From an uncultured Candidatus Saccharibacteria bacterium (GTDB lineage Bacteria > Patescibacteriota > Minisyncoccia > Phycocordibacterales > DATDWN01), in contig CAYXWL010000001.1 of the NCBI GenBank assembly GCA_964468795.1, positions 232,246 through 296,245 on the forward strand: DNA of 64,000 bases. The letters run 5' to 3'. Made by a program: the position numbers and the translations under genes. Below, one piece after another: positions 2,884-26,550 of this stretch (position 1 is the first letter of the stretch; every line of letters begins with the position of its first letter). The notes under the pieces are model-generated. The model did not search any database, was not told the origin of the DNA, and was given only the letters and a program-made list of their open reading frames with translations.

Positions 2884-3948
2884 TTATTTTAACATCCTAT
2901 CCAGACCCTTTGCATTATTACTGTATTGATATGCACTCTCGATAGTAATCTCGCCATTTCTAACAAGCTCACTTAAGTACCTGTTTAGATCAATCATGCC
3001 TTCTCCTGAAGATGTTTCTATTATCGAATTAATCTCATGAACCCTGTTCTCTCTGATAAGGTTGGCCACTGCGCTGTTATTTATTAAAAGCTCTACAGCA
3101 GGAATAAGTCCGCCTGATATCCTAGGAATGAGCCTTTGTGACAAAATTCCAATCAAGCTTCCAGAAAGCTGAGTCCTTATCTGCTCCTGCTGGATAGCAT
3201 CAAAGGAATCAAGAATTCTTTCGATGCTTCTGGCTGCATCGTTGGTGTGCAGAGTTGAAAAGACCAAATGTCCTGTTTCCGCGGCAGTAACAGCTGTTGA
3301 CATATCTTCAGGTGAACGCATTTCTCCAATCATGATAACGTCAACGTCTTGCCTGAATGTTCCCCTGAGGCCAGCGTGGAAATCTGGCGTGTCCTGCAAG
3401 ACTTCTCGCTGATCAATGATTGATTTTTTTGATTCAAAAATATATTCGATCGGATCTTCAATTGTAATAATATGCTCGAATCTGTCTTGATTGATCCTTT
3501 CAATCATGGAGGCGAGAGTAGTGCTTTTGCCCTGTCCTGTAGGACCTACAACCAAAAAGAATCCCTGCTGTTTGGCTGTAAATGTTTCGATAATAGAAGG
3601 CAGGTTAAGCTCTGCAAAAGTCTTTATCTGCTTAGGAATGAGCCTCAAGGCTACGCTCATTTTCCCTACTTGAAAATATGCATTTCCTCTGAATCTCGTG
3701 CCGGTCTGATCATAAGCAAAATCCACCTCTTTCTTATCAATAAAAATTTCCTTTTTGGAATCGTCGAGCAAAACATCTAAAATGCCTTTCATGTCCTGCT
3801 TTGTCAGGACATGGCTGTTCGTCATAGGAATAAGTGTGCCGGATACTCGAATAATAGGCTGTCTGCCTTCAGACAAATGAAGGTCGGATGCATTTTCAGA
3901 AATCAAAATTGAAATCAGGCTTTCGATTGTTTTTTTGTAATCCGACAT
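2884..3948 (-). CDS. pilT: twitching-motility retraction ATPase
   Basis: 354 aa. Walker A GPTGQGKST, Asp box and His box (TLHTNDA) typical of PilT. Confidence 0.9.
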   Translation of the reverse strand: MSDYKKTIESLISILISENASDLHLSEGRQPIIRVSGTLIPMTNSHVLTKQDMKGILDVLLDDSKKEIFIDKKEVDFAYDQTGTRFRGNAYFQVGKMSVALRLIPKQIKTFAELNLPSIIETFTAKQQGFFLVVGPTGQGKSTTLASMIERINQDRFEHIITIEDPIEYIFESKKSIIDQREVLQDTPDFHAGLRGTFRQDVDVIMIGEMRSPEDMSTAVTAAETGHLVFSTLHTNDAARSIERILDSFDAIQQEQIRTQLSGSLIGILSQRLIPRISGGLIPAVELLINNSAVANLIRENRVHEINSIIETSSGEGMIDLNRYLSELVRNGEITIESAYQYSNNAKGLDRMLK

Positions 3949-11589: not shown

Positions 11590-12873
11590 ATGATAACCAC
11601 AGGAAACAACATAAAAATAGAGCAAGTGAAAATATCGGAGTTAAGACCATCTGTATACAATCCGAGGAAATGGGATGATAAAATCATTTCCGATATGACC
11701 GAGAGTATCAATCGTTTCGGACTTTGCGACCCTCTCCTTGTAAATGGAGCACCGGAAAGAAAAAATATTCTCATCGGCGGTCACTTGAGACTGAAAGTCG
11801 CAACAAACTTAGGATTTACAGAAGTTCCAGTTGTGTATCTCAACATTCCAGACATTGAAAAAGAGAAGGAATTAAACTTGAGACTTAATAAAAATCTGGG
11901 CAACTGGGATGAGGAGTTACTTAAGGCATTTGATGTGGATTTACTCTTAGATGTTGGCTTTACGCCAGATGAATTGAACTTTCATTTTGATGATGTGCTT
12001 AGCATTACTGACGATGATTTCAATGTAAAAGAAGAACTGGAGAAAATCACTACTCCTACCACTAAACCAGGTGACCTATTTCAACTTGGAGATCACAGAT
12101 TACTTTGTGGAGACTCTCTCAAACCAGATGATGTGAAGAAACTCATGGGTTCTGAGAAAGCTCATATGATTTACTGTGATCCTCCATACAACATTGGACT
12201 TGATTATAGGAAAGGTATCGGGACAAAGGGAAAATATACTCAGGAGAAGTTGATAAATGACAGTAAGAAACTTGGTGAGTATGAAAAGTTTTTAGAAAAG
12301 TCTTTGCAAAATGCTTTAAGTGTAAGTAGAGAGAATGTTCATGTCTTCTACTGGTGTGATGAGAAATATGTCTGGCTTGTTCAGAAGCTATACAATCAAC
12401 ATGGAGTTACCAACAGACGTATTTGCTTTTGGATAAAGAACAATTTTGATCCAACACCGCAAGTTGCATTCAATAAAGTGATCGAGCCGTGTGTATATGG
12501 AACTCTTGGTAGTCCAAAACTCAATCCAAGTTTGCAGAATATATCCGAGATTCTAAACATGGATGTTAATTCCATCGGCTCATACGATGACATCATGTCT
12601 ATTGTCCAGATGTGGTTAGTCAAAAGAGACAACACACTTGAATACGAACATCCAACACAGAAACCAATCACTCTAAACGAAAAACCTATGAAGCGCTGCT
12701 CTTCCCCAGGAGAGATTATTCTCGACTTATTCGGCGGAAGCGGATCGACTTTAATCGCCGCAGAACAATTAAAGCGCCGTGCATTCCTAATGGAAATTGA
12801 TCCAACATTTTGCGATTTAATTATTAAACGATATGAACACTTCACAGGAAACCATGTCAAAAAACTCAACTAA
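11590..12873 (+). CDS. ParB-like nuclease domain fused to N6/N4 DNA methyltransferase
   Basis: N-terminal ELRPSVYNPRKW (ParB/Srx-like). CDPPYNIG (motif IV) and LDLFGGSGSTLIAAE (motif I). Confidence 0.8.
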   Translation: MITTGNNIKIEQVKISELRPSVYNPRKWDDKIISDMTESINRFGLCDPLLVNGAPERKNILIGGHLRLKVATNLGFTEVPVVYLNIPDIEKEKELNLRLNKNLGNWDEELLKAFDVDLLLDVGFTPDELNFHFDDVLSITDDDFNVKEELEKITTPTTKPGDLFQLGDHRLLCGDSLKPDDVKKLMGSEKAHMIYCDPPYNIGLDYRKGIGTKGKYTQEKLINDSKKLGEYEKFLEKSLQNALSVSRENVHVFYWCDEKYVWLVQKLYNQHGVTNRRICFWIKNNFDPTPQVAFNKVIEPCVYGTLGSPKLNPSLQNISEILNMDVNSIGSYDDIMSIVQMWLVKRDNTLEYEHPTQKPITLNEKPMKRCSSPGEIILDLFGGSGSTLIAAEQLKRRAFLMEIDPTFCDLIIKRYEHFTGNHVKKLN

Positions 12874-13621
12874 AATCTGGGAACTTGGAAATCATAGACT
12901 GCTTTTAGGTGACTCCACTCTAAAAGCAGATATCAATTTGCTTGTTGGTAAAGACAAGGCAAATCTTCTTTTAACTGACCCTCCATATGGAGTCGGATAT
13001 GTTGAAAACAAAGAAGAATTTCTGGAAGCAATCAATGGGAAAAGTAATCCTCAGAAATTTTCTTCCATAAAAGGAGACGGAATCAAAGAAGATTATTACG
13101 ATTTCTCTAAAAAGTGGCTTGGGATACTCAAACCGCATCTCGCAGATAAGAATTCCTTCTATATTTTCAATGGTGACGCAAAACTCAGAGAGTTCCTCAA
13201 TTCTTTGCACGATCTTAGTTACACTAAATCAGCTATTTTAATCTGGATCAAAAATCACGCAGTCATCGGTCGCAAAGACTATCACCCACAGCATGAACTC
13301 ATCATATACGGTTGGCTAGGCAAACATGAATTCTTTGGGAATAAGGGCAAAACTACTTTGTTTTATCCTAAACCCAACAAAAACAAACTTCACCCCACCA
13401 TGAAACCACCGATGCTTTTGCGTAGACTCATCTATCACAGCACAAAGCCCGGCGATGTTGTACTTGATCCGTTTGGTGGATCAGGTTCAACACTAATCGC
13501 TTGTGAGGAACTAGGTCGAAAATGTCTCATGATCGAGAGTGACGAGAAATATTGCGAGACAATCATTGAAAGATGGCAGAAACTTACAGGAAAAACTGCG
13601 AAGTTAATTAATCATGCGTAA
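12833..13621 (+). CDS. DNA methyltransferase (N6/N4 type)
   Basis: TDPPYGVGY and LDPFGGSGSTLIACE. The start may be the internal ATG at 12854. Confidence 0.8.
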   Translation: MNTSQETMSKNSTKIWELGNHRLLLGDSTLKADINLLVGKDKANLLLTDPPYGVGYVENKEEFLEAINGKSNPQKFSSIKGDGIKEDYYDFSKKWLGILKPHLADKNSFYIFNGDAKLREFLNSLHDLSYTKSAILIWIKNHAVIGRKDYHPQHELIIYGWLGKHEFFGNKGKTTLFYPKPNKNKLHPTMKPPMLLRRLIYHSTKPGDVVLDPFGGSGSTLIACEELGRKCLMIESDEKYCETIIERWQKLTGKTAKLINHA

Positions 13622-13627
13622 GAAAAT

Positions 13628-14017
13628 ATGGACAATGATGCCGACAAATCACAAACAATTTCTGTCTATAAGCGACAAGAGTTCGAGTCGTATGTTCTTT
13701 GGAGATCTATGCCATCAATTCTCCGAGGCCAACCGAGACACGTCATTGAAAAACTTGGTGTCGATGATGAATTGGCTATGTCACTTTTGGAAATCAAAAA
13801 TCAAACAGAATTTGCCAAACGTTTCGGCATCAAAGACCTCGGCACACTTACAGAGTGGAATAAAAAGATTGAAAAAGAAGGAGGACTTCTCAAGCACATC
13901 AACTCTTGGGCACGAAAACTTACACCAAATGTTGTCTCTGCTTTGTATCGAGAAGCCACAAAGACTGGCAAAGCAGCCGAGGTGAAAGCATGGATGGAGA
14001 TAGTTGAAGGAATGTAA
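13628..14017 (+). CDS. hypothetical protein (possible HTH)
   Basis: 129-aa ORF in a co-directional array. EFAKRFGIKDLGTLTEWNKK resembles an HTH. The alternative frame 13614..13985 was rejected. Confidence 0.45.
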   Translation: MDNDADKSQTISVYKRQEFESYVLWRSMPSILRGQPRHVIEKLGVDDELAMSLLEIKNQTEFAKRFGIKDLGTLTEWNKKIEKEGGLLKHINSWARKLTPNVVSALYREATKTGKAAEVKAWMEIVEGM

Positions 14018-14026
14018 AACAAATAT

Positions 14027-14233
14027 ATGAACAATGAGAAAAAATATCTAACAACAGAAGAAGCAACCATTATCTTGTCGGAGGCTCTTCAAGATGTGGC
14101 TCAAAGAAAAACAACACTTAAGCGAGCCCTCGTAATTTCTCGTTTAGCTTTGGCCTTATCGAAAATGATTGAAGTAAATGACCTCAAAGATCGAGTCGAG
14201 TTTCTTGAACAGACCTTAAAGAAAAGAAAATAA
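14027..14233 (+). CDS. hypothetical small protein
   Basis: 68 aa, tightly coupled to the neighbouring genes. Confidence 0.45.
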   Translation: MNNEKKYLTTEEATIILSEALQDVAQRKTTLKRALVISRLALALSKMIEVNDLKDRVEFLEQTLKKRK

Positions 14234-14234
14234 T

Positions 14235-16073
14235 ATGAAACAAGTTACAAGCAACATGCTACTAAAAGGAAACCTTACTCCGACAGAGAAATTCATTCTC
14301 CTTATTCAAGATGAGGTAAATAGAATCAAAACTGGAAAAGAAATACTGACTCCTGCCGACAGAGATGCGTTAGAAAATTGGAAAGCACAGACTAATAAAG
14401 AAGCTCATGAGTGGAACAGATTAAATGATGGATTTAAACAGACAGCAAAGATGAACGTTGAAGTGGAGTTTACTTACAAAGATGCTCAAGTAGCATACCT
14501 GGCCCAACTACCAATTACTTCACAGCTTCTATTCTATCCATACTATAGGGAGATGCGAGGTTGTATTAAAACCCTCAAAAATATCAAGAAAGCAACTCCA
14601 AAAGAAGTAATGGAGGCCGCAGAAAAACAAAAACAAGTCAAACTAAAGGAAGGAATGGATTTTGACTATGCAATATATCAACTAGCTTTCGAACTTCTAT
14701 CTGAGAAAGACAAGAAACAAATGAAAGATCTGTATGAGGAAATAGAATATGAACACCAATATTTAGACCAAGAAGAAATCATCGCTAATTTGTTTAATGG
14801 GAAAGAAACTCTAACTCAGAAAGCTAAAGAAAAGCTAGCGACTCTTGTTGCTGAAAGAAGCTACAATGTATTTGCTAAAGAGTACCAGTTCTTCCATTAT
14901 TTTGCCTGTATCCCAATAGCTGAAGTAGCGCGATATTTCCTCAAATCCAAAGGAGTGGAAGTTAAAGGAAAAAATTTATCCAAAAATCAGGAATCAGATG
15001 ACGAGGACTCAGTTACGCATGATAAAATCGATGATGTTGTAAAGAAATATGCGCAAGAAAATAAAATTTCTGTTGAAACACTACTTAAAGAAGGGTGTTT
15101 ACAGTGGTTAGATGACGGGCTCTTGGATGAATACACCCCTCTTGTCATTAGCACTAGTGCAGAGTTATTTGAAAGATGGCTTAAGACAAAAGTAAAAGCT
15201 AAGAGTATTTTACTTAAACACATAGAGAATAAGGAATTAACTCTTAGAAAAAGAAGTGAAAACGAGACATTCAAACACAAACTGCGCAGTAAAGACTTAT
15301 ATGATATTGAGCTAAATGTCGCCCGAAAAGTACTAGAAAATCTTGATCTGGAACTGAGAGTAGAAAAAGCAGAAGGAGATGAAAGAGTTGCTTTTGAGGA
15401 ATTCAATGAATCAATAATTACAGGAGAAAGTTTGTATACCTTTAAAGGAGAATATGGATTTGTTAAGAAATTCAAAGAAAGAGCAGATGAATATGATGCC
15501 AACCTTGGTATTGTATATGCAGATGATGACCCAGAACATACAGGAGAGCACTTGGATCAAGAATTCATTGTCTGTAGCCAAAACGGTAAAGGTGACGCTA
15601 GCTTCTTTAGCTTGTATGGGATGTCAATTTCAATGCTCTCCTCTTTCTTTGATGGAAAACTGCTTTTCAAAGAAAAAGTTAAAGATAAGAAGACATATAT
15701 TGAATTCAAAGATCCAATGATAGAAGCAATTTTTAAAGAAAGAAGAAAACTAATGATTGATGGGTATGCAAAACTTCTAGCTTTTGAGAAACTTTTTAAG
15801 AAGCTGGGTAGGATATACCAATCAGATCTGGAGTGGAACGTCAGAGAAAGAATTAAAAGGATGAAAGAACATATTGATCAATTTAACGAAACGATTAGAG
15901 TGGCAACAAATACGAGTGAAGAAGAGAGAAAATATAAAGAAGGGATATTTAGGAGAAAGGAGGTTCTGTATTTCGAGGAAGAGCAAATAATCGACACAGA
16001 AAAGATCCTGCCAGATGAAACAGTGATTGAGGAATACAGAAAGAAATTTGAGGATTTGTTTGAGGAGTTTTGA
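14235..16073 (+). CDS. hypothetical large acidic/coiled-coil protein
   Basis: 612 aa, K/E-rich, no motif recognised. Confidence 0.6.
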   Translation: MKQVTSNMLLKGNLTPTEKFILLIQDEVNRIKTGKEILTPADRDALENWKAQTNKEAHEWNRLNDGFKQTAKMNVEVEFTYKDAQVAYLAQLPITSQLLFYPYYREMRGCIKTLKNIKKATPKEVMEAAEKQKQVKLKEGMDFDYAIYQLAFELLSEKDKKQMKDLYEEIEYEHQYLDQEEIIANLFNGKETLTQKAKEKLATLVAERSYNVFAKEYQFFHYFACIPIAEVARYFLKSKGVEVKGKNLSKNQESDDEDSVTHDKIDDVVKKYAQENKISVETLLKEGCLQWLDDGLLDEYTPLVISTSAELFERWLKTKVKAKSILLKHIENKELTLRKRSENETFKHKLRSKDLYDIELNVARKVLENLDLELRVEKAEGDERVAFEEFNESIITGESLYTFKGEYGFVKKFKERADEYDANLGIVYADDDPEHTGEHLDQEFIVCSQNGKGDASFFSLYGMSISMLSSFFDGKLLFKEKVKDKKTYIEFKDPMIEAIFKERRKLMIDGYAKLLAFEKLFKKLGRIYQSDLEWNVRERIKRMKEHIDQFNETIRVATNTSEEERKYKEGIFRRKEVLYFEEEQIIDTEKILPDETVIEEYRKKFEDLFEEF

Positions 16074-16115
16074 GAGGATTGATACATTACAAGGTAAGAG
16101 ATACTATATACATCA

Positions 16116-16508
16116 ATGAAAAAAGATTTTAAAAAGTGGCACACAAAGAAAGAGTTTCTGCACAATGAGAAGGATATTTCAAATATATTCTTCAAAGAGC
16201 GAGAAGTCTGGTGGGTAGCACTTGGAGCAAATATAGGATTTGAACAAGATGGTAAAGGTGAAGAGTTCAGAAGACCAGTTTTGATTTTGAAGAAGTTTAA
16301 CCAATTTGTACTCTTGACTGTGCCTCTCACTACCAAGATTAAGAAGAATAAATACTATGTTCCTCTTGATATTGGAGATGGAACACCACGTATGGCTATC
16401 ATTTCTCAAATAAGGCTTATAGATACGAAAAGACTTATCGACAAACTGGCAACTCTTGAAGAGGATTCTTTTACTCAAATCAAAAACGCAATCAAAGCTA
16501 TGCTCTAA
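16116..16508 (+). CDS. MazF/PemK-like toxin-fold protein (no adjacent antitoxin seen)
   Basis: REVWWVALGANIGFEQDGKGEEFRRPVLILKK..TVPLTTK pattern typical of PemK/MazF. Confidence 0.65.
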   Translation: MKKDFKKWHTKKEFLHNEKDISNIFFKEREVWWVALGANIGFEQDGKGEEFRRPVLILKKFNQFVLLTVPLTTKIKKNKYYVPLDIGDGTPRMAIISQIRLIDTKRLIDKLATLEEDSFTQIKNAIKAML

Positions 16509-16628
16509 TTGCGTCTTTGCTTGTCTGCTCCCTTGCGAGAGCGAGCCCGAAGGCCATTTGTACCTACAGTATATATCGATTTAAGTGAAAGTCAAATGAA
16601 GTTATCTACAGTATAATATAAGAAAAAT

Positions 16629-17651
16629 ATGCAAATAAAATCCCAATTTGACCACAGAGGAAAAACTTACAAAGTTACATATACTGATGGAGTTCCGGAA
16701 GTAGAAAATCTTGAAACTCAAGATGGTGTTCATTCGTATTGTTTCTATGGAGATAAATTAGTTATCGTTGGACATGGAGCAGACAACAATTGGACTCCTC
16801 CAGGTGGAGCTATCGAAAAAGGAGAAACTTACACTGAAGCAGCTATACGAGAAATCAAGGAAGAATCAAATATGAAAGTCCTTCATATTGAATGTATTGG
16901 ATATCAAGATGTAGAAGTATCATACGGTACTGGAATGGTTAGACAATTCAGAATGATGGCTATTGTTAAACCATATGGAGAATTTGAAAAAGACCCAGAT
17001 GGAGATATTTTGGAGATAAAGCTGATTGATCCAAAAGATTACAAAGAATATATAAAATGGGGAGAGATCGGAGATTACTTAATGAAAAGAGCCTTGGAGA
17101 TGAAGGAGTATAACTTTGAAGATGTCACCAAAGATGCAGTTGTAAATCCAATTGAACTAGCAAAAAGATTTGCGAGTAAAAAGTTTGCAGAGATACAAAC
17201 AGGAAATCACTTTCTAGATGTATATAGAATTCTTAAAGAAGAGTTTGGGGTTAATGATGAAGAAGTTTTAATCGCTGGACTATTGCACGATACACTTGAA
17301 GATACTTCTGCTACATATGATCAAATTGAAAGAATTTTTGGGAAGAGAGTTGCGGATTTAGTAGAGGAAGTGTCTCATCCAAAAAATTACAATAATGAAC
17401 AGAAGAAAGAATACTATGAGAAACTAAAGCATATTTCTGATGGAGGGAAAATGATAAAACTAGCTGATTTTAAATCACACTTAGTTAATTTCATCGGAGC
17501 TTTTACAGGAAAAAACAATTTGAAGAAATTTACATACACAGAGTACACAGATAATATTCTTAGTTTTCTAGAAAATTATCCTGAATCAGCAGCAAAAAAT
17601 ACTGTATATAATTTATCAAAAGAGTTAGAAGGTCATATTTTAGGAAAATAG
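16629..17651 (+). CDS. Nudix hydrolase fused to an HD (SpoT/RelA-type) phosphohydrolase domain
   Basis: Nudix box GGAIEKGETYTEAAIREIKEESN. C-terminal AGLLHDTLEDT HD motif. Confidence 0.75.
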   Translation: MQIKSQFDHRGKTYKVTYTDGVPEVENLETQDGVHSYCFYGDKLVIVGHGADNNWTPPGGAIEKGETYTEAAIREIKEESNMKVLHIECIGYQDVEVSYGTGMVRQFRMMAIVKPYGEFEKDPDGDILEIKLIDPKDYKEYIKWGEIGDYLMKRALEMKEYNFEDVTKDAVVNPIELAKRFASKKFAEIQTGNHFLDVYRILKEEFGVNDEEVLIAGLLHDTLEDTSATYDQIERIFGKRVADLVEEVSHPKNYNNEQKKEYYEKLKHISDGGKMIKLADFKSHLVNFIGAFTGKNNLKKFTYTEYTDNILSFLENYPESAAKNTVYNLSKELEGHILGK

Positions 17652-17652
17652 T

Positions 17653-18414
17653 ATGAAATTAATTACCTTAAATGCGTGGGGTGGAAAAATATATGAACCA
17701 CTCATTTCTTTCCTTAAGGAACACTCAAAAGATGTGGATATTTTTTGCTTTCAAGATGTATTATTCGGGTCAAAACCAGAGTTTACTCCAATTCAAAAAG
17801 GAAGAGTAAACTTATTTTCAGAAATTGAAAATATTTTAAGTGATTTTAATTCATTTATCTTTAGAGATAAAAATGAGTCATTTATTCATGGCGAGATGTT
17901 GCCTCTCGAGGTGGGGTGCGGGCAAGCTATTTTTGTAAGAAAAAATTTAAAAGTTCTAGATAACGGCGCATTTCGTGCTTTAGACAGAGAAACAGACGAT
18001 GACATTGCTCCTGGAAGATGCCAGTGGATTAAAATTAAATTACATAACGAAGAAAACCTGGTTGTTATGAATTTACATGGAATGTGGCAAAAAGGTTCTC
18101 AAAAGAAAGACACTCCAGAAAGAATAGTACAATCACAAAAAGTTAAGGAGTTTTTCTCTCAACACAATTCCAAGCAAATAATATGTGGTGATTTTAATAT
18201 GGTAAAAGATGGGAATGCAATGAGTATGTTGGAAGAAGGAATGGTAAATTTAGTGAAAGAATACGGCATTCAATCAACCCGAAGCAGCCATTACCCAAAA
18301 GAAGAAAAATTTGCAGACTATATACTCGTATCAAAAGATATAAAAGTAAATGATTTTAAAGTTTTGCAGAATGAGGTATCAGACCATTTGCCTTTATTTG
18401 TGGATTTTGAATAA
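17653..18414 (+). CDS. endonuclease/exonuclease/phosphatase (EEP) family protein
   Basis: MKLITLNAWGG .. CFQD .. GDFN .. SDHLPL motif series. Confidence 0.7.
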   Translation: MKLITLNAWGGKIYEPLISFLKEHSKDVDIFCFQDVLFGSKPEFTPIQKGRVNLFSEIENILSDFNSFIFRDKNESFIHGEMLPLEVGCGQAIFVRKNLKVLDNGAFRALDRETDDDIAPGRCQWIKIKLHNEENLVVMNLHGMWQKGSQKKDTPERIVQSQKVKEFFSQHNSKQIICGDFNMVKDGNAMSMLEEGMVNLVKEYGIQSTRSSHYPKEEKFADYILVSKDIKVNDFKVLQNEVSDHLPLFVDFE

Positions 18415-18420
18415 AGAAAA

Positions 18421-18442
18421 GCACCACGATTTTTTGTGGTGC
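18421..18442 (-). terminator. hairpin terminator at the AT/GC composition boundary
   Basis: GCACCACgattttttGTGGTGC, followed by a T-run on the minus strand. Ends the minus-strand GC-rich operon. Confidence 0.55.
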
Positions 18443-18575
18443 TGGAAGTGGTGTGCAGTCCAGATCTTTAGCATTGCGAGCGTTGGCCACCTCCTTGGTT
18501 TTCAACTTAGCCGCTCGCGTAGCGATCTGGTTACGGCTTGTGCCGTCATCCGTTCCCACTTAGGGAACGACTCAA

Positions 18576-18695
18576 TTAGTCCTCTGGCCTCTGCACATGC
18601 CTGGACCGCGATATGTTGGGAACTCCATGCAACATGAGTGCGCACTCCGCCTTTGTTACAGCGCCCTCCGCTAGAGGGTAACGTGCCGTCTTCAT
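18576..18695 (-). CDS. candidate 39-aa ORF (last gene of the GC-rich operon)
   Basis: Own translation MKTARYPLAEGAVTKAECALMLHGVPNISRSRHVQRPED, placed just after IR copy a. Below the track cutoff. Confidence 0.25.
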   Translation of the reverse strand: MKTARYPLAEGAVTKAECALMLHGVPNISRSRHVQRPED

Positions 18696-18703
18696 GGTGG
18701 AGC

Positions 18704-18745
18704 TCCCATCAAAAGTTTCAAATTATTTTAAAATCTTTGATGGGA
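18704..18745 (-). repeat. IR family copy a: TCCCATCAAA - AT-rich spacer - TTTGATGGGA
   Basis: 10-bp perfect inverted arms read directly; gene orientation is minus. Confidence 0.7.
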
Positions 18746-18885
18746 GGGCGAACAAATTTCGTTGCTCACCCATTGCACTGCGGTCTCGCCCTGCCTTATC
18801 AGCAAACGAAGTGTCTAGCTTCGTTGCTCGCTTAAGTCATTTCTGACATCAGCGAATTCGCGCAGGATCCCCGCTCAAGTTTGTG

Positions 18886-19386
18886 CTAACTCAGTCGACC
18901 CAATAAGGTTTGCCCTGTCGATACCAATCTGGCGTATGACCACCACTGACTGTAATCAGTGAGGATTTCCATACGCCAATGGCTGTCGACTCTGCCGGGA
19001 ATGGGCGGACACAATTCGATGAACGGAGATTGCTGATTGCGCAACTCCTCGTCCCTCGAAACGCGCCTCGCACACACCGGCAAAGTGACACCACTCGCAT
19101 CTTTGACGAATGCGACATTGGCACTGAGCCTCGACGAAAGTTTCCCACTGCATACTCGACCGTCTTTCTTTGGCGCAAGTAAGTTGAGAAAACTGTCGAT
19201 CGAGATAGGGCGATACCTCGTCAGGATCCGCTGCGCGTCGACGTATGTCCCGAGGTCCCAGAGAAGCAAATTGCTCTTCTCTTCGTTCCGGCGCACTTCC
19301 ATATTGCTAAAGTGACGCTCGAAAGTCTCACAAACCTCGAGGACGTTGACACTCACAAGGCGATCCCGAACGATGTAGTTTTCCAT
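18886..19386 (-). CDS. hypothetical protein (166 aa)
   Basis: Start set at MENYIVRDRL, preceded by AAAGGAGGG. GC-rich module. Confidence 0.55.
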   Translation of the reverse strand: MENYIVRDRLVSVNVLEVCETFERHFSNMEVRRNEEKSNLLLWDLGTYVDAQRILTRYRPISIDSFLNLLAPKKDGRVCSGKLSSRLSANVAFVKDASGVTLPVCARRVSRDEELRNQQSPFIELCPPIPGRVDSHWRMEILTDYSQWWSYARLVSTGQTLLGRLS

Positions 19387-19420
19387 GAGCCCTCCTTTGG
19401 GCAAAATACAGACTATTTTT

Positions 19421-19534
19421 AAAGAACTTTGGAACAATTTTGTTCCTTCAGAATACTTAACCTAGGTTAAACCCTCTGAAGGAAGTCCGAGGATATATGA
19501 CTTCCTCGGACGATACCGGGCTGACGCGCCGATA
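19421..19534 (-). promoter_or_regulatory. conserved structured leader, copy B (the homolog is at 26174..26288 on the plus strand)
   Basis: ~75 nt nearly identical to copy A: ATCGGCGCGTCAGCCCGgTATCGTCCGAGGAAGTCATATATCCTCGGACTTCCTTCAGAG. Covarying hairpins and GTTCTTT follow. Confidence 0.5.
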
Positions 19535-19544
19535 GACGTTATTG

Positions 19545-20093
19545 CTAGACTTCTCCCGAGAGATCGTTCGGATCTTCGTGGCCGTCCCACTCGGTGTCGA
19601 CATCTTCTCGCTTCCACTTGAGCCGATGGAGGACGTACTCGATCCTGCCCCTGGATTGTTTGGACAGCTTCCACTTCAACCAGCCGAACTCCTTCTCGAG
19701 CTGAGCAAGATTCTCGATCTGCCAACGCTTCAGGCAAGAAACGAGTCTTGGACTGAAGATGGATTTCGTCGAGATCTCCTCCCGAGGCCGATCTTTCAGC
19801 GAGTCGACGATGGCGTTGAAAGCCATCTCGAACTTCTGTTGCTCTACGGGCGGAGGCGGGAGTGGCTTCGGCGGTTTGCCGGCGTTCTTTCGTGCGGTGC
19901 GAACCTTACGAACTGCCTTGCGGGCAATCTGCATGATTCGCTCCTTCGTGACGGCAAACTCCTGGCCGATGTCGTTGTAGCTCATCCCTTGCGCGAGTAA
20001 GGTCAGGATTCTCTCCTCGCGGGGAGTCGTCCTCATGCGCTCGACTGGTGTGATCTCCGAAATGACAATGCCGAACAAAGTTTTTTTCTGCAA
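19545..20093 (-). CDS. sigma70 region-4-like HTH protein with an extra C-terminal domain
   Basis: TTG start after GGAG. TPREERILTLLAQGMSYNDIGQEFAVTKERIMQIARKAVRKV resembles sigma region 4. FSPRLVSCLKRWQIENLAQL weakly resembles an RpoA-CTD helix-hairpin-helix. Confidence 0.55.
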   Translation of the reverse strand: MQKKTLFGIVISEITPVERMRTTPREERILTLLAQGMSYNDIGQEFAVTKERIMQIARKAVRKVRTARKNAGKPPKPLPPPPVEQQKFEMAFNAIVDSLKDRPREEISTKSIFSPRLVSCLKRWQIENLAQLEKEFGWLKWKLSKQSRGRIEYVLHRLKWKREDVDTEWDGHEDPNDLSGEV

Positions 20094-20128
20094 TGTTTTT
20101 CTCCAAAGAACAAAGGGAAATTATTTTC

Positions 20129-20165
20129 CCGTCAAAACTCTGAAATAAATTCAAAACTTTGACGG
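20129..20165 (-). repeat. IR family copy f (variant arms CCGTCAAA / TTTGACGG)
   Basis: Preceded on the minus strand by hairpin GCCGAACttcgGTTCGGC. Followed by GGGAAAataaTTTCCC, GTTCTTT, GGAG and the start of 19545..20093. Confidence 0.6.
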
Positions 20166-20421
20166 AAGCCGAACCGAAGTTCGGCAAGTGTGATGGTAAA
20201 CTCGGAGTAGTTGTAGCCACTCTTTGCTCTTTAGGTAACTTGCGCCCTTAGCGAATACCCTGATTCCATCGCCAGACAGAATCACGGGAGAGTGGTTAAA
20301 GCTACAACTTCTAACCAACTACTCGCTCAATATGTATCACGGGCCATCACGCTCCACGACACGTCGCAACATTTTTCCTGCTCAAAAAATTCTACGATGT
20401 ACCGTGGAACTTTACAAAGAA

Positions 20422-20474
20422 CTTCTGTTTCGTCGTTTCCGACTCATCAGGTGAGACATACATCTCACGACAGG
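20422..20474 (-). ncRNA. hammerhead ribozyme, type III (HHR1)
   Basis: Minus strand: cCUGUC|GUGAGA-UGUAUG-UCUCAC-CUGAUGA-GUCG-GAAA-CGAC-GAAAC-AG. Full catalytic core, GUC cleavage site. Confidence 0.8.
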
Positions 20475-20558
20475 TGCCTTGGGTGCTAATCAAGACAAAT
20501 GATTTTTGGCCCTACTGCCCCTTGCGGGTACTCGGACCTTCTGTTGCCAAGCCGGTCA

Positions 20559-20939
20559 TTACTCCGGCTCCGTCTCCTCAAGCTGCTCTTCAGCAAGCTC
20601 GAGTTTTCTGCAGGCCTCTTCGAAGGCAACCAAGGCAGGAATGTTTCCCTTGCCCAGCTCTGGCAGCACTACGATTGGGAAGATTTCATCTCCCGTCTCG
20701 AGGTACAACCGAGAACCTTCTCCGTCGTGATGGGCGGCCCGCGAGAACTGGCGATGGCAGGAACGGCACTCGAAATAATCCAAGTCGTTCACTTCCACCG
20801 TGCAAGCTCCACAGGACGGACACCCATAACAAAGGAGTCGGCGTTGCGATTCTTCGTAGGCGAGCATTGGACACGAAGACAAGTGCTCGGACACTGACTC
20901 GTGGCAGTGTCGGCACTTTACCGTCAGTCGCAGTCTCAT
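20559..20939 (-). CDS. Cys-rich zinc-ribbon-like protein (126 aa)
   Basis: ATG at 20939, 5 nt after AGGAGG. CRHC..C..CYGCPSCGAC..CRSC motifs. Confidence 0.55.
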   Translation of the reverse strand: MRLRLTVKCRHCHESVSEHLSSCPMLAYEESQRRLLCYGCPSCGACTVEVNDLDYFECRSCHRQFSRAAHHDGEGSRLYLETGDEIFPIVVLPELGKGNIPALVAFEEACRKLELAEEQLEETEPE

Positions 20940-21315
20940 ACTCACCTCCTATTAAAGAACTTGAGACAAACCATTTGCCTCGTCATAATAATCAAAATCT
21001 TGATTTCTCTGACGAGACCCCGACTGATATTTTAGTCGGGATGTTGTGGTGGTGACTGTAAGCGATTGCAGTCACTTACAACCTTGAGATGTTCGGCGAA
21101 TTCCGAGCACCTCTTAGTGAATGTTTGGCTCCACCCGTATCCGAAATAGATACGGGAATCTGGCGCAAGCGCTGGGTGAGAATCTGCAACTCTCACGCTC
21201 TAAGCACCATTCACTCCCTCATGTATCATGGGCCACCACAGCTCCACGACACCTTGCACAACATTTTTTAGAAAAATTCTGTGCGAGATGTCGTGGATAG
21301 ATCAAAAGAACAGTT

Positions 21316-21366
21316 TCTGTTTCGTCCTTTCGGACTCTTCAGGGAGAATACACATTCTCCGACAGA
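21316..21366 (-). ncRNA. hammerhead ribozyme, type III (HHR2)
   Basis: Minus strand: CUGUC|GGAGAA-UGUGUA-UUCUCC-CUGAAGA-GUCC-GAAA-GGAC-GAAAC-AGA. Only the variable N7 differs from the other copies. Begins 6 nt after the stop codon of 21373..21651. Confidence 0.8.
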
Positions 21367-21372
21367 GCCGGA

Positions 21373-21651: not shown

Positions 21652-22032
21652 GATACCTCCTAGTTTTGAAAGAATAGTGGGTGTTTGCAGGATCCTCTCT
21701 GACTTTAATAGTCCGTGGCTTATCCACAGCTATTTCCTAGTGGTAACTTACCCACAAGGTCGTCTTTGATTAATCACCGCTAACATTGCACACCCGCGCA
21801 ACGCCAAGATGCCGGCAAGCATCTGGTGGATCGGAGCAAAGTTGCCTGGCCTCAGTTCTGTACGATTGCAGCCACTTTGGACTGCAATCTACCTCTCAGG
21901 CTGCCATGCCTTCGAAACACAGAAGTGTACCTTTGGCTCTGCTCCTAACGAAGATCCATCGGACTCCGGAATTTACCAAACTATTTGTCGAGCAAATTCC
22001 GAAATCCGTGAACCATTTTATTTTAAAGAACT

Positions 22033-22083
22033 TCTGTTTCGTCCTTTCGGACTCATCAGGCGAGACACTCATCTCACGACAGA
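22033..22083 (-). ncRNA. hammerhead ribozyme, type III (HHR3)
   Basis: Minus strand: UCUGUC|GUGAGA-UGAGUG-UCUCGC-CUGAUGA-GUCC-GAAA-GGAC-GAAAC-AGA. 5-bp open stem III. Confidence 0.85.
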
Positions 22084-22133
22084 CCAGGATGACGCTCTGG
22101 TAGACGTTTAGGAGATTCTGTTGCCGAGCTCTC

Positions 22134-22388: not shown

Positions 22389-22460
22389 TCCCATCAAAGA
22401 AATCAAGCTTTATTATTTTCTTGAAAGTAAACTTTCAAGTTGTTAATTGCTTTGATGGGA
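22389..22460 (-). repeat. IR family copy b: TCCCATCAAAG - 50-nt AT-rich spacer - CTTTGATGGGA
   Basis: 11-bp perfect arms. The spacer contains hairpin CTTGAAAgtttacTTTCAAG. Confidence 0.7.
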
Positions 22461-22566
22461 GGGCAAACGATGTTTTGTCGCTCACCCATGTTTACCCATG
22501 CTTTTACGCGGAAGGATTTTTCCACAACTTCGGTGCCTTGGCCGAAGGTTGACGCACCCAGTCGGA

Positions 22567-23116: not shown

Positions 23117-23145
23117 AGTATATACTAAACGTATATTTTTGTCAA
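23117..23145 (-). promoter_or_regulatory. sigma70-type promoter for the minus-strand GC-rich operon
   Basis: Minus strand TTGACA - 17 nt - TATACT. Confidence 0.55.
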
Positions 23146-23280: not shown

Positions 23281-23309
23281 TTGACAAATAAAATGAATGG
23301 GTATATACT
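23281..23309 (+). promoter_or_regulatory. sigma70-type promoter for the candidate ncRNA
   Basis: TTGACA (23281-86) - 17 nt - TATACT (23304-09). Confidence 0.6.
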
Positions 23310-23314
23310 TATAG

Positions 23315-23658
23315 GCAGACGAGTACCCAGGGTGTTCTTGGGGAAAGGAGGGTTCCATGCACGACTAGTGCGGGCTGGGGAACCGGGGGTTGTTAACCCC
23401 CGGTGTGGCCTCCAGTTTGGCTAGTCATAGATTGTGGAGGAAGCAAAAGTGGACGACTAGCACATAGGTGGTTCCAGTTCCATGCGTCCGACCACCAGAT
23501 AGTCAGAGGACGCGAGACAGATCATCTTCGTTCAGTTCAAGGTGGAAAATCCACCAGACAAAGAGAGAAGTGTGATTCCGTCAATCGTTCCCGGCGATTA
23601 GTCTTCGGGAACAACATGCCGTGGCGACAACTTACCGTCGCCACGGCATTTCTTATTT
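23315..23658 (+). ncRNA. candidate novel structured RNA (~340 nt) with its own promoter and intrinsic terminator
   Basis: GC-rich island between a consensus promoter and terminator ATGCCGTGGCGACaacttaccGTCGCCACGGCAT+TTTCTTATTT. Many helices, e.g. CCGGGGGUUguuAACCCCCGG and GGUGGAaaaUCCACC. Confidence 0.5.
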
Positions 23659-25238: not shown

Positions 25239-25284
25239 AATATACCATTTTGTGCTTGACAAGTCAAGTAAAGTATGCTAGGAT
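25239..25284. promoter_or_regulatory. back-to-back divergent promoters with adjacent -35 boxes that together form a palindrome
   Basis: Plus: TTGACA(25256-61)-17-TAGGAT. Minus: TTGACT(25267-62)-17-TATATT. The -35 boxes lie in CTTGACaaGTCAAG. Confidence 0.5.
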
Positions 25285-25353: not shown

Positions 25354-25662
25354 ATGACGCAGAATGCATATGATTTGAAGAAGATCGTGAACGGTCCGAG
25401 CAAGATGGACCTCATGCTGGCGATGTTCGACAGCAGCTTCCCGAATCACCGTTCAGTTGTCTTCAACTTTGAGAATGAGGGAGCGAGCAACTTCAAAGCT
25501 AGTGCTCCCTGTCACATCTCGATGGTTGAGAAGGAAGACGGTTCTGGCGAAAGCTTTAACTTCGAAGGAACTCTCTCCTACGACAACTTCCGGACAGGTA
25601 AGAGGGTGCGTGGTTGCTATAACACCATGCGCCGGACTGGCTTCTTCCACTTCGTGCAGTAG
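25354..25662 (+). CDS. hypothetical protein (102 aa)
   Basis: MTQNAYDLKKIVNG.. after AAAAAGGA. Confidence 0.45.
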   Translation: MTQNAYDLKKIVNGPSKMDLMLAMFDSSFPNHRSVVFNFENEGASNFKASAPCHISMVEKEDGSGESFNFEGTLSYDNFRTGKRVRGCYNTMRRTGFFHFVQ

Positions 25663-25690
25663 TTCTTCTGGGCGAGTTGTTAACTCGCCC

Positions 25691-25730
25691 TCCCATCAAA
25701 GTAATTAAATTTTTGATTTCTTTGATGGGA
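25691..25730 (+). repeat. IR family copy c
   Basis: GGGCGAGTTgttAACTCGCCC hairpin, then TCCCATCAAAG-18 nt-CTTTGATGGGA. Confidence 0.7.
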
Positions 25731-25782
25731 CAATTTGGTCCCGATTTGTTCATTTCAATTTTCAGTGCCCAAAGGAGGGCCC

Positions 25783-26154
25783 ATGATCAACGAACGTGGT
25801 GAGTTTATTCGCGAGACGGCAGCTCCTTCTACCAAGGAAGTCACCACGAAGAATTACATGGTCAACGTGGTCACTTCATCGCTCAAGGATATTCTCAGTG
25901 GACACAACCTGATCAGCGACATGAACCAGGTTATCCTTCTCCAGTTCGGACCTTGCTCGGAAGAGGAAGGTGACGCTCTGGCGGATCGGATCAACGCGTG
26001 GGTTCGTGGGGGTGAAGGTCGTGGTCCTGCTGAGGCATTCCGGATTCTGGGACTGCACCAGAAGACGGGAGATGTGTGGGCGTCTTGCGACCCGATCCCG
26101 ACGGCTGGCATCTCGGAACTTCTCCAAAAGTTCCAGGTGAAAACCACTGTTTGA
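25783..26154 (+). CDS. hypothetical protein (123 aa)
   Basis: MINERGEFIRE.. after AAAGGAGGGCCC. Confidence 0.5.
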   Translation: MINERGEFIRETAAPSTKEVTTKNYMVNVVTSSLKDILSGHNLISDMNQVILLQFGPCSEEEGDALADRINAWVRGGEGRGPAEAFRILGLHQKTGDVWASCDPIPTAGISELLQKFQVKTTV

Positions 26155-26173
26155 TCAACATAAAGATCCGTCC

Positions 26174-26288
26174 ATCGGCGCGTCAGCCCGATATCGTCCG
26201 AGGAAGTCATATTATCCTCGGACTTCCTTCAGAGAGTTCAACTTTGTTTGAAAATTCTGAAGGAACGAATAGTTCGTTCTGGTTCTTT
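26174..26288 (+). promoter_or_regulatory. conserved structured leader, copy A
   Basis: ATCGGCGCGTCAGCCCGATATCGTCCGAGGAAGTCATATTATCCTCGGACTTCCTTCAGAG ... TTCTGAAGGAACGAAtagTTCGTTCtgGTTCTTT, then GGGGAGG and ATG at 26302. Confidence 0.5.
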
Positions 26289-26301
26289 GGGGAGGTACAC
26301 C

Positions 26302-26520
26302 ATGTTCGTCAGCAATACCACGATTTTTCACTGCCCGATGTTCGGGTGCGGTCACGAAAACGAACGTTCGAACCGCACGAAGCCGGAAGACATCGTTTGC
26401 GAAGGATGTCACGCACCTTGGTGGCCGATGGAACTCGGTTTCATTGGAAATGATCCGAAAGAAAACATCGAGTTCGCACGGACTCATGATCGGAAAGGAA
26501 ATCTTCGTGAGCTGGCGTAA
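26302..26520 (+). CDS. zinc-ribbon-like small protein (72 aa)
   Basis: MFVSNTTIFHCPMFGCGHENE..CEGCHAPWW. Confidence 0.45.
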   Translation: MFVSNTTIFHCPMFGCGHENERSNRTKPEDIVCEGCHAPWWPMELGFIGNDPKENIEFARTHDRKGNLRELA

Positions 26521-26550
26521 TTCTTCTGGGCGAACGTAATTTGTTCGCCC

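Follow-up and report, generated by a model that had tools for sequence, protein, structure and literature searches.

A repeated, covarying RNA element between the cistrons of two GC-rich gene islands in a Candidatus Saccharibacteria genome

Intercistronic hairpins that are processed, or that protect 3' ends as stem-loops, are known from the RNase III sites of phage T7 early mRNA and from the repetitive extragenic palindromic sequences and bacterial interspersed mosaic elements (REP/BIME), and in the put RNAs of phage HK022 two hairpins abut without a linker. In T4-type phages, a terminator stem-loop and an early promoter together make up the "mobile regulatory cassettes" known as PeSL (Arbiol et al. 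2010, PMC2839356; Comeau et al. 2014, PMC4122927). Here we describe a structured element in a 64-kb stretch of contig CAYXWL010000001.1 (64,000 nt; hereafter, the window) from an uncultured Candidatus Saccharibacteria bacterium of the candidate phyla radiation (CPR). An original prediction from the letters alone had taken it for a two-copy, conserved 5' leader with mutually exclusive, riboswitch- or attenuator-like hairpins. We find that this "leader" is a subtype, distinguished by an extra 5' hairpin (H1), of a repeated intercistronic RNA element.

Like the PeSL, the elements of the window are short conserved stem-loops repeated between small, mostly orphan open reading frames (ORFs) in plastic regions of mobile genomes, and they are exchange points between unrelated sequences; here, the order of ORFs in the window and in a related contig (L035) differs at the element. 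Unlike the PeSL, they contain no promoter, each island having a single upstream one. They are also larger (two to four hairpins), covary as RNA and co-occur with hammerhead ribozymes in CPR bacteria. The T7 sites are alike in placing a ~20-bp irregular hairpin with an internal loop between cistrons of one transcript, a geometry shared by the conserved hairpin of the present element (hairpin b), and the T7 sites leave the upstream message with a hairpin at its 3' end, but hairpin b is far more conserved than RNase III needs, a variable hairpin a always abuts it and a small hairpin c always overlaps it.

The two copies noticed originally were correctly placed at 26174-26288 (plus strand; copy A) and 19534-19421 (minus strand; copy B). 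Their homology begins 5 nt before the 5' end given then, at a CGUC (26169 and 19538), and with the spacer to the ATG the whole extents are 26169-26301 (+) and 19538-19387 (-). Near-identity had been claimed for about 60 nt, and in the alignment the copies differ there by one substitution (R) and one 1-nt indel; a 21-nt and a 35-nt core are each present just two times in the window, whereas 100 shuffles gave an expectation of 0. Both copies fold into three successive hairpins, H1-H2-H3, with minimum free energies (MFE) of -44.7 and -44.6 kcal/mol and z = -4.7 and -4.8 for A and B, respectively. H1 reads AUCGG-C-GC-GUCA-GC-CCGAU, H2 is GUCCGAGGA / UCCUCGGAC, and in H3 an 11-bp lower stem is joined through a 2x2 internal loop to a 5-6-bp inner hairpin. 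The inner hairpin of H3 and the next small hairpin (hairpin c) differ in sequence between A and B and still pair, as had been proposed; in copy A, GGAA is common to hairpin c and the 3' strand of H3. The GUUCUUU followed by a Shine-Dalgarno (SD) site is likewise present in both copies, the SD being immediate in A and 27 nt on in B. No Rfam 15 family matched copies A and B at the gathering score, at E <= 10 or in a 156-nt search with lax filters, which agrees with the earlier view that they belong to no known riboswitch or ribozyme class.

The copy number had been underestimated. A covariance model built from nine leader-type sequences only (R1) detected another seven elements in the window (E-values from 1e-7 to 1e-2), each with H3, an adjoining H2-like hairpin, hairpin c and GUUCUUU. 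A repeat finder and direct reading located these "two-hairpin" (T2H) elements 3' of almost every island ORF, and in a MAFFT alignment both leaders align with them, H2 corresponding to hairpin a and H3 to hairpin b. All family members have the variable hairpin a (= H2) abutting the conserved, bipartite hairpin b (= H3) with zero linker, and after these come the small hairpin c, GUUCUUU and the SD site; H1 is a 5' extra of the leader subtype. Hairpin a varies freely among the T2H copies (GGGCGAAC..GUUCGCCC is one example). Their hairpin b consists of UCCCAUCAAAG, an inner hairpin UUUCAA..UUGAAA and then UUUUGAUGGGA, and in it a 2x2 internal loop separates an 11-bp lower stem from a 5-7-bp upper stem. 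The complete unit runs from an ORF stop through an optional motif G (described below), an optional H1 and hairpins a, b and c to GUUCUUU, the SD and the next ORF. On the coding strand, GUUCUUU occurs eight times in the minus-strand island and three times in the plus-strand island, with one just 3' of each hammerhead. A separate ribosome-binding module, GCCCAAAGGAGGGC, is a 4-bp hairpin presenting the SD (19390-19403, minus strand; 25765-25778, plus strand); it also stands upstream of two ORFs in a Minisyncoccia contig (L041) and is common to unrelated ORFs in different genomes.

Relatives of the element were found in a Saccharibacteria metagenome-assembled genome (MAG), a Minisyncoccia MAG and groundwater metagenomes. 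Homologue searches returned few homologues of the flanking ORFs, and for ORF72 and ORF182 only near-identical proteins with the exception of P0007. L035 holds a homologue of ORF182 (79% identity) with a diverged leader, and L031 and L033 hold homologues of ORF166 (59-65% identity) with a T2H element or a hammerhead upstream in place of the leader. A single genome scan identified three leader-type copies, hammerheads and a TrmB gene in L040 (Candidatus Saccharibacteria MAG, CAYFZH010000008.1) and two H1-bearing copies beside a large serine recombinase and tRNA genes in L041 (Minisyncoccia MAG), and one metagenome scan added L039 (a Hainich groundwater contig) with one leader, one variant leader-like copy and two hammerheads. 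The H1 and 5' half of H2, ~35 nt, are invariant across different CPR classes. Hybrid copies, with H1 and H2 on a canonical hairpin b in L040 and H1 on a different hairpin a at L041:7774, indicate that the element is modular. Viral contigs, phage records and plasmid records yielded no relatives: neither island had a BLASTN match in the phage and plasmid collections, and searching viral loci by way of TrmB was equally negative. Exact words from two leader cores, scanned against viral contigs, gave chance matches only, in GC-rich phages; the single viral match to a gapped H1-H2 pattern was rejected by the model; and a loose hairpin-b pattern hit at least 120 viral loci, with no true member among those listed according to a regular-expression check.

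Pairing was evaluated in the nine leader-type copies and in 24 family copies (alignment A5, pair statistics), and the overlap of hairpins b and c in 26 copies. The nine leader-type copies had 97.3% of cells paired with seven compensatory pairs (six in H3, one in H1, none in H2), and pairing dropped to 32-57% when the partners were slid. In the 24 family copies 96.8% of cells were paired and 22 of the 33 pairs were compensatory, values reached in 0/500 shuffles. Homologues and compensatory pairs in both sets bear out the claim of a conserved, structured element with real covariation. The coding strand is taken as the folding strand because G.U pairs outnumber A.C pairs on it (73 vs 5), and R1 scores on the reverse strand are much lower. 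These pair statistics show a fold that, as judged from sequence, belongs to the transcribed strand and would act as RNA, top-strand single-stranded DNA being less probable.

All R1 matches sit on the coding strand of two GC-rich operons, with none in the remaining ~55 kb of the window, unlike dispersed REP/BIME or miniature inverted-repeat transposable element (MITE) repeats. We consider it very unlikely that the element is a selfish, MITE-like palindromic repeat that has spread in the island and has no function for it. The many copies in a small region would suit such a repeat, as would GTTCTTT or TTCTTC on both sides of some copies (27150/27235; L040:1637; L031:1150), which resemble a target-site duplication. 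However, all 26 copies are sense-oriented and occupy the same place, after a stop codon and before the next SD, the rest of the window has none, leader-type copies lack a flanking repeat, and the G.U pairs and covariation keep the fold of one strand only.

The term 5' leader did not survive the comparison with relatives, where the element starts shortly after the upstream stop and travels with the upstream ORF. The gap is 3-14 nt in the seven leader-type copies directly after an ORF, and 57 and 76 nt in two L040 copies with motif G between. A leader-type element comes after ORF182 in the window as well as in L035, and the next unit is ORF166 in the former and a non-coding module (module X) in the latter. 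An ORF family with "...AGVEYAR...ESLGL" is followed by an H1-type element in L040, L039 and L041, and the three downstream ORFs are unrelated. The 3' side of ORF166 is constant (motif G and T2H in the window, L031 and L033), and its 5' side is leader B, a T2H element or other sequence. In L035 and L039 a leader-type element precedes a non-coding module and no ORF. In general, the ORFs downstream of leader-type copies are mutually unrelated and the upstream ORF families recur. Because the element stays with the upstream ORF in three families and the downstream sequence varies, it is best described as a 3' cassette boundary and not as a leader, and the compared loci show it in this place, at the 3' end of predicted gene cassettes in polycistronic island operons. 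A gene-specific leader is also contradicted by the ORF166 homologues in L031 and L033, which occur without the element upstream. The original prediction was thus largely correct in positions, similarity, hairpins and the GUUCUUU-SD arrangement, and not in "two-copy" or "5' leader".

The order of units is ORF182-leader-ORF166-T2H-module X in the window and ORF166-T2H-ORF182-leader-module X in L035, with the breakpoint at the 3' end of hairpin b, and the 5' modules (GTTCTTT vs GTTCATTTCATT, and the SD hairpin) reassort relative to ORF166. This breakpoint would fit a DNA-level recombination site, either single-stranded DNA hairpins or a duplex core, in which an attC-like 3' cassette boundary uses GTTCTTT as core site. 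As in integrons, small promoterless ORFs of the same orientation, here orphans, lie behind one promoter, cassettes are reshuffled between relatives, and a structured site whose fold is better conserved than its sequence lies at the cassette 3' end with a 7-bp junction motif beginning GTT. GTTCTTT is found at nearly every junction, sometimes flanking an "empty" element, and both the window and L041 have large serine recombinases close to the islands. We nevertheless regard such a site as quite unlikely. The element lacks the RYYYAAC...GTTRRRY pair, a consensus that neither GGGCGAAC/GTTCGCCC nor GTTCTTT matches, and it consists of two abutting hairpins and not of one with extrahelical bases. The strand that folds is the coding strand, in contrast to the bottom strand of attC. 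Pfam scans of 20 ORFs (10 island ORFs and 10 larger ORFs, 14.2-31.8 kb; several flank ORFs lie outside this set) found no IntI-type tyrosine recombinase, only the large serine recombinase at 29426-30757. The reassorted 5' modules are better explained by homologous exchange across several short conserved blocks than by a single fixed crossover site.

The competition between GGAAGUC and GACUUCC, central to the original prediction, was partly upheld. The two segments are complementary, overlap H2 and H3 and pair in 9/9 leader-type copies, but the resulting fold is far from the ground state: when forced, it lies 5.8-8.9 kcal/mol above the MFE, and its equilibrium pair probability is 1e-5 to 1e-7. 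L039:1381 reads GGAAACC/GGUUUCC, two compensatory changes from a single lineage, and the observed value was reached in 11/500 shuffles. In the constrained alternative fold, hairpin c is complete. In 26/26 copies hairpins b and c overlap, the final 3-5 nt of b doubling as the 5' strand of c, much as an antiterminator overlaps the 5' strand of a terminator, and the overlap covaries (GGAAC/GUUCC, GGGAC/GUCCC, GAGGCAAA/UUUGUCUC and others). GUUC[UA]UU lies 1-5 nt after hairpin c in 18 of the 26 copies, and a loose scan classed hairpin c with GUUCUUU as terminator-like at six of the nine window elements. An H-type pseudoknot AGUC:GACU would leave no nucleotides for either connecting loop and was rejected for that reason.

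These overlaps allow the first idea to be refined into a conditional attenuator or riboregulator, in which some factor would flip a four-segment switch: 1, GGAAGUC; 2, GACUUCC; 3, the 3'-terminal GGAA of H3; and 4, the UUCC in hairpin c. With 2:3 paired, H3 would be intact, hairpin c weakened and transcription would read through; with 1:2 and 3:4 paired, hairpin c and GUUCUUU would be complete and give termination or a different 5' structure. The universal, covarying overlap of 2:3 with 3:4, the 1:2 helix paired in every leader-type copy with two compensatory pairs, and the complete, loosely terminator-like hairpin c of the alternative fold speak for it, and the four mutually complementary segments before a U-rich tract, with the H3 base overlapping the 5' strand of hairpin c, recall a trp-type attenuator. 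We still judge the switch unlikely. The alternative state is unfavourable by the 5.8-8.9 kcal/mol given above and H2 is made first in transcription, both compensatory changes come from one sequence with 11/500 shuffles equalling the value, and segment 1 is missing from the seven T2H copies, where the b/c arrangement is unchanged. Unlike the trp attenuator, the element has a weak terminator-like hairpin with a displaced U-tract and no sensor; no leader peptide or other sensing device is visible, the upstream stop being ~40 nt before segment 1 (GGAAGUC). Nor does an aptamer stand upstream of related genes as in a riboswitch, the downstream ORFs being unrelated or replaced by module X, and nine copies with a freely varying hairpin a in two operons are unlike a ligand aptamer. 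The riboswitch- or attenuator-like reading is supported by the covariation, the conserved competing helix and the universal b/c overlap, and not by the downstream genes, the energetics or the sensing.

The interpretation that we favour, tentatively, is that the element is intercistronic RNA punctuation that forms or stabilises transcript ends and is also a point of module shuffling. The block of hairpins a and b would form or protect the 3' end of the upstream cistron RNA, by one of two routes. By analogy with RNase III between phage T7 cistrons, an endonuclease may cut within the ~20-bp irregular hairpin b; alternatively, termination at hairpin c and the U-rich GUUCUUU may be leaky. Once hairpin b is cut or opened, hairpin c could fold at the 5' end of the downstream RNA, immediately ahead of GUUCUUU and the SD, and the hammerheads of the same operon would leave a comparable folded 5' end followed by GUUCUUU. 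Hairpin b may double as the crossover point for cassette shuffling, because the conserved b repeats between unrelated ORFs.

Several points weigh against intercistronic punctuation of this kind. The cutting and termination steps are purely conjectural, and hairpin c is weak (5-9 bp) with its U-rich tract 1-5 nt past the stem, which is atypical of intrinsic terminators. The T2H elements at 20978-21057 and 20127-20190 come after ~300 nt of apparently non-coding RNA 3' of a hammerhead and not after an ORF. Alignment A5 was fitted to the model, which biases its pair counts toward the model structure, and folded single-stranded DNA also tolerates G.T pairs, leaving room for a top-strand DNA role. 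Finally, the sequence of hairpin b is far more conserved than a simple protective stem requires, and this conservation, together with the invariant ~35 nt of H1 and 5' H2, points to a specific protein or RNA partner that lies outside the favoured model.

Such a partner might be an element- or host-encoded protein, acting as a regulator of translation or stability or modifying RNA polymerase as the HK022 put RNAs do, that recognises hairpin b and the invariant H1 and H2 loops (both present GUCA). The invariant block and conserved hairpin b persist across Saccharibacteria, Minisyncoccia and the window host next to non-homologous ORFs, and the two hairpins abut without a linker as in put RNAs. 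A protein site is nonetheless distinctly improbable: no RNA-binding protein is identifiable among the island ORFs by Pfam and PHROGs (orphans except for a sigma-70 region 4 helix-turn-helix, HTH), hairpin a varies freely in the T2H copies, and, unlike put, the element is present many times per operon and as far as 3.6 kb from the promoter.

The elements also lie at cassette boundaries, in the minus-strand island on the same transcripts as three hammerheads, and Weinberg and colleagues reportedly found, in 2015, new ribozyme classes beside hammerheads. With this precedent and the invariant unpaired nucleotides CGUC, GUCA (H1 loop) and AGUCAU (H2 loop), a new self-cleaving class with the same job as its hammerhead neighbours might be imagined, but it is highly improbable. 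Conservation falls mainly in helices and not in junctions, most family members can do without H1 and H2 or have them replaced, and no ribozyme model of Rfam 15 (hammerhead, twister, twister-sister, pistol, hatchet, HDV, hairpin and others) matches. No pseudoknot or tertiary contact is supported either: pairing of J1/2 (GUAU) with the H2 loop (AUAU) shows one compensatory change in L035 and is mismatched in L040:710, L040:171 and L041:7171. A likeness to the hairpin ribozyme (GAAGUCA, AUAUUA, CAGAGA) was rejected on the wrong motif order, the lack of conservation of these nucleotides in relatives and the lack of an Rfam hit, and a tRNA-like reading of the element was also rejected.

The window is bacterial chromosome of ~38% GC with type IV pilus genes, FtsH, SecY, RecG, G6PD and tmRNA, and the two islands stand out at ~50% GC (18.4-23.1 kb on the minus strand; 25.0-27.8 kb on the plus strand). 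Each is predicted to be one transcription unit with one near-consensus sigma-70 promoter and one strong terminator (Table 1), and no coding-strand promoter-like site was found at any element. The island ORFs are small orphans; in PHROGs and Pfam scans the only clear domain was the sigma-70 region 4 HTH of ORF182, and ORF128 (20559-20945) had a marginal BED zinc-finger match. As the original prediction held, the element shares an operon with hammerheads. The three type III hammerhead-like ribozymes (E about 1e-6, just under the Rfam gathering score of 48.5) have a short stem III and lie 717 and 892 nt apart in the minus-strand operon, each with GTTCTTT within 3-6 nt. Downstream of this heptamer, nos. 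2 and 3 have a conserved stretch of ~250 nt that appears to be non-coding (CCACGACA..UGUCGUGGAGCUGUGGUGGCCCAUGAUACAU). We found no literature report of hammerheads in Saccharibacteria, and the literature pairing hammerheads with Patescibacteria was irrelevant.

Table 1 Features of the two islands, with coordinates in the window and scores against the leader-type covariance model (R1) or, for hammerheads, the Rfam model.
Feature	Position	Strand	Remarks
Copy A, leader-type element	26169..26265	+	CGUC, H1, H2, H3; R1 105.6 bits
Copy A, hairpins	H1 26174-26192; H2 (= hairpin a) 26196-26223; H3 (= hairpin b with inner hairpin) 26224-26265	+	
Copy A, shared 5' module of next cistron	26262..26301	+	Hairpin c 26262-26280, GTTCTTT 26282-26288, SD GGGGAGG, ATG at 26302
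Copy B, leader-type element	19443..19538	-	CGUC, H1 19533-19515, H2 19511-19485, H3 19484-19443; R1 109.3 bits
Copy B, 3' part	19387..19446	-	Hairpin c 19446-19431, GTTCTTT 19427-19421, SD in small hairpin GCCCAAAGGAGGGC, ATG at 19386
T2H after ORF166 and motif G	18704..18786	-	R1 46.1 bits, E = 1e-7; in alignment A5
T2H upstream of sigma-r4 ORF182	20127..20190	-	R1 E = 5.9e-5
T2H upstream of ORF128	20978..21057	-	R1 E = 1.6e-3
T2H with enlarged inner hairpin, between ORF112 and ORF90	22389..22518	-	R1 E = 0.01
T2H between ORF105 and ORF123	25653..25730	+	R1 E = 4.9e-6
T2H after zinc-ribbon ORF72	26506..26590	+	R1 E = 3e-5
T2H after ORF153, GTTCTTT on both sides (27150, 27235)	27132..27220	+	R1 E = 1.6e-6
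Sigma-70-like promoter of minus-strand operon, TTGACA-17-TATACT	23117..23145	-	
Strong intrinsic-terminator-like site, end of minus-strand operon	18420..18443	-	
Sigma-70-like promoter of plus-strand operon, TTGACA-17-TAGGAT	25256..25284	+	
Strong intrinsic-terminator-like site, end of plus-strand operon	27777..27806	+	
ORF182, Sigma70_r4 HTH	19545..20093	-	Upstream partner of leader B
ORF123, orphan	25783..26154	+	Upstream partner of leader A; stop 14 nt before CGUC
ORF166, orphan	18886..19386	-	Downstream of leader B; L031/L033 homologues without leader upstream
ORF72, CxxxxC...CxxC zinc-ribbon-like orphan	26302..26520	+	Downstream of leader A
Type III hammerhead no. 3, then GTTCTTT	20422..20476	-	42.3 bits, E = 1.8e-6
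Type III hammerhead no. 2, then GTTCTTT	21314..21368	-	44.4 bits
Type III hammerhead no. 1, then GTTCTTT	22031..22085	-	41.5 bits

A TrmB-like regulator lies between the islands, and the large serine recombinase (29426-30757) and a tRNA-Ser (33793-33883) are nearby. The low-GC genes flanking the islands (11590-18414 and 27808-30757) encode a ParB-N6/N4 methylase fusion, NUDIX-HD, Exo_endo_phos, an acetyltransferase and the recombinase, and a 130-aa ORF judged by eye may be MazF/PemK-like. Judged by this gene set, including a large serine recombinase beside tRNA-Ser, the entire 11.5-33.8 kb region appears to be an integrated element. An inverted repeat of 118 nt (30855-30972 and 32114-32231; 86% complementary) surrounds a third GC-rich segment with a 311-aa orphan ORF (30849-31784, minus strand), and one repeat arm overlaps the 3' end of this ORF; a promoter-like TTGACA-18-TATACT there is followed ~10 nt later by GTTCTTT (31789).

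Other RNA modules accompany the elements. Module X (18445-18703, minus strand; L035 1041-1295; L039 725-975, minus strand; L041 6457-6706, minus strand) is non-coding, ~255 nt long and comes after the last T2H or leader element of the operon. It is 88-92% identical across CPR lineages, above the neighbouring ORFs, has a consensus fold of -85 kcal/mol with four compensatory pairs, and ends in GGACUGCACAC, then GUUCUUU in L039 and L041. It had no Rfam match and no conserved ORF; a 39-codon ORF at its start was rejected, being interrupted after seven codons in L035 and L039. Motif G, G[CU]GGGGAUC[CU]UGC ... GCA[GA]GG[CU]GAGACC[GA]C, separates the stop codon of some ORFs from the T2H or leader element that follows (window about 18778-18876, minus strand; L031 about 735-815; L035 about 162-200; L040 about 3275-3325), and its helices are compensatory between the window and L035 (CCUGC/GCAGG to CUUGC/GCAAG; GCGG/CCGC to GUGG/CCAC). 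In L040, positions 1100-2850 hold an exact 816-bp tandem repeat whose unit is a type III hammerhead plus a T2H element (hammerheads 1132-1187, 1948-2003 and about 2754-2842; T2H 1637-1727 and 2453-2543). This retrozyme-like repeat could give unit-length or circular RNAs. Between the islands, 23316-23655 (+) is a candidate GC-rich non-coding RNA gene of ~330 nt (MFE -144.5 kcal/mol, z = -6.2) with a promoter-like site at 23281-23309 (TTGACA-17-TATACT) and a terminator-like site at 23616-23649; it has no Rfam hit and is conserved with the adjacent TrmB gene in L040 (68% nt).

On a broader and speculative reading, which we think unlikely, the leader and T2H elements, hammerheads, motif G and module X would together be an undescribed RNA-punctuated gene-cassette system on mobile islands moving between CPR lineages (Saccharibacteria, Minisyncoccia and the window host). 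Units bounded by self-cleaving or structured RNA and GUUCUUU would be exchanged like integron cassettes, without IntI or attC; in a variant, the invariant H1-H2 block of the leader subtype might represent a novel class of ribozyme or of effector-binding RNA.

The element constitutes a new family of structured RNA whose general type is familiar, the intercistronic or boundary stem-loop repeats of mobile elements, and its hammerhead-rich CPR island setting is unusual. Catalogues of RNA motifs gain a well-supported family from the 24 aligned copies, and the case is a warning that what looks like a "conserved leader with competing hairpins" can turn out to mark the 3' boundary of the gene before it. 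If the favoured interpretation is true, CPR mobile islands would keep small orphan genes apart by conserved RNA modules (hammerheads, T2H or leader elements, motif G and module X), and gene cassettes may reshuffle without an integron. The islands would then offer a testable case of the cutting, stabilising and translation of polycistronic RNA in organisms that have so far been beyond genetic manipulation.

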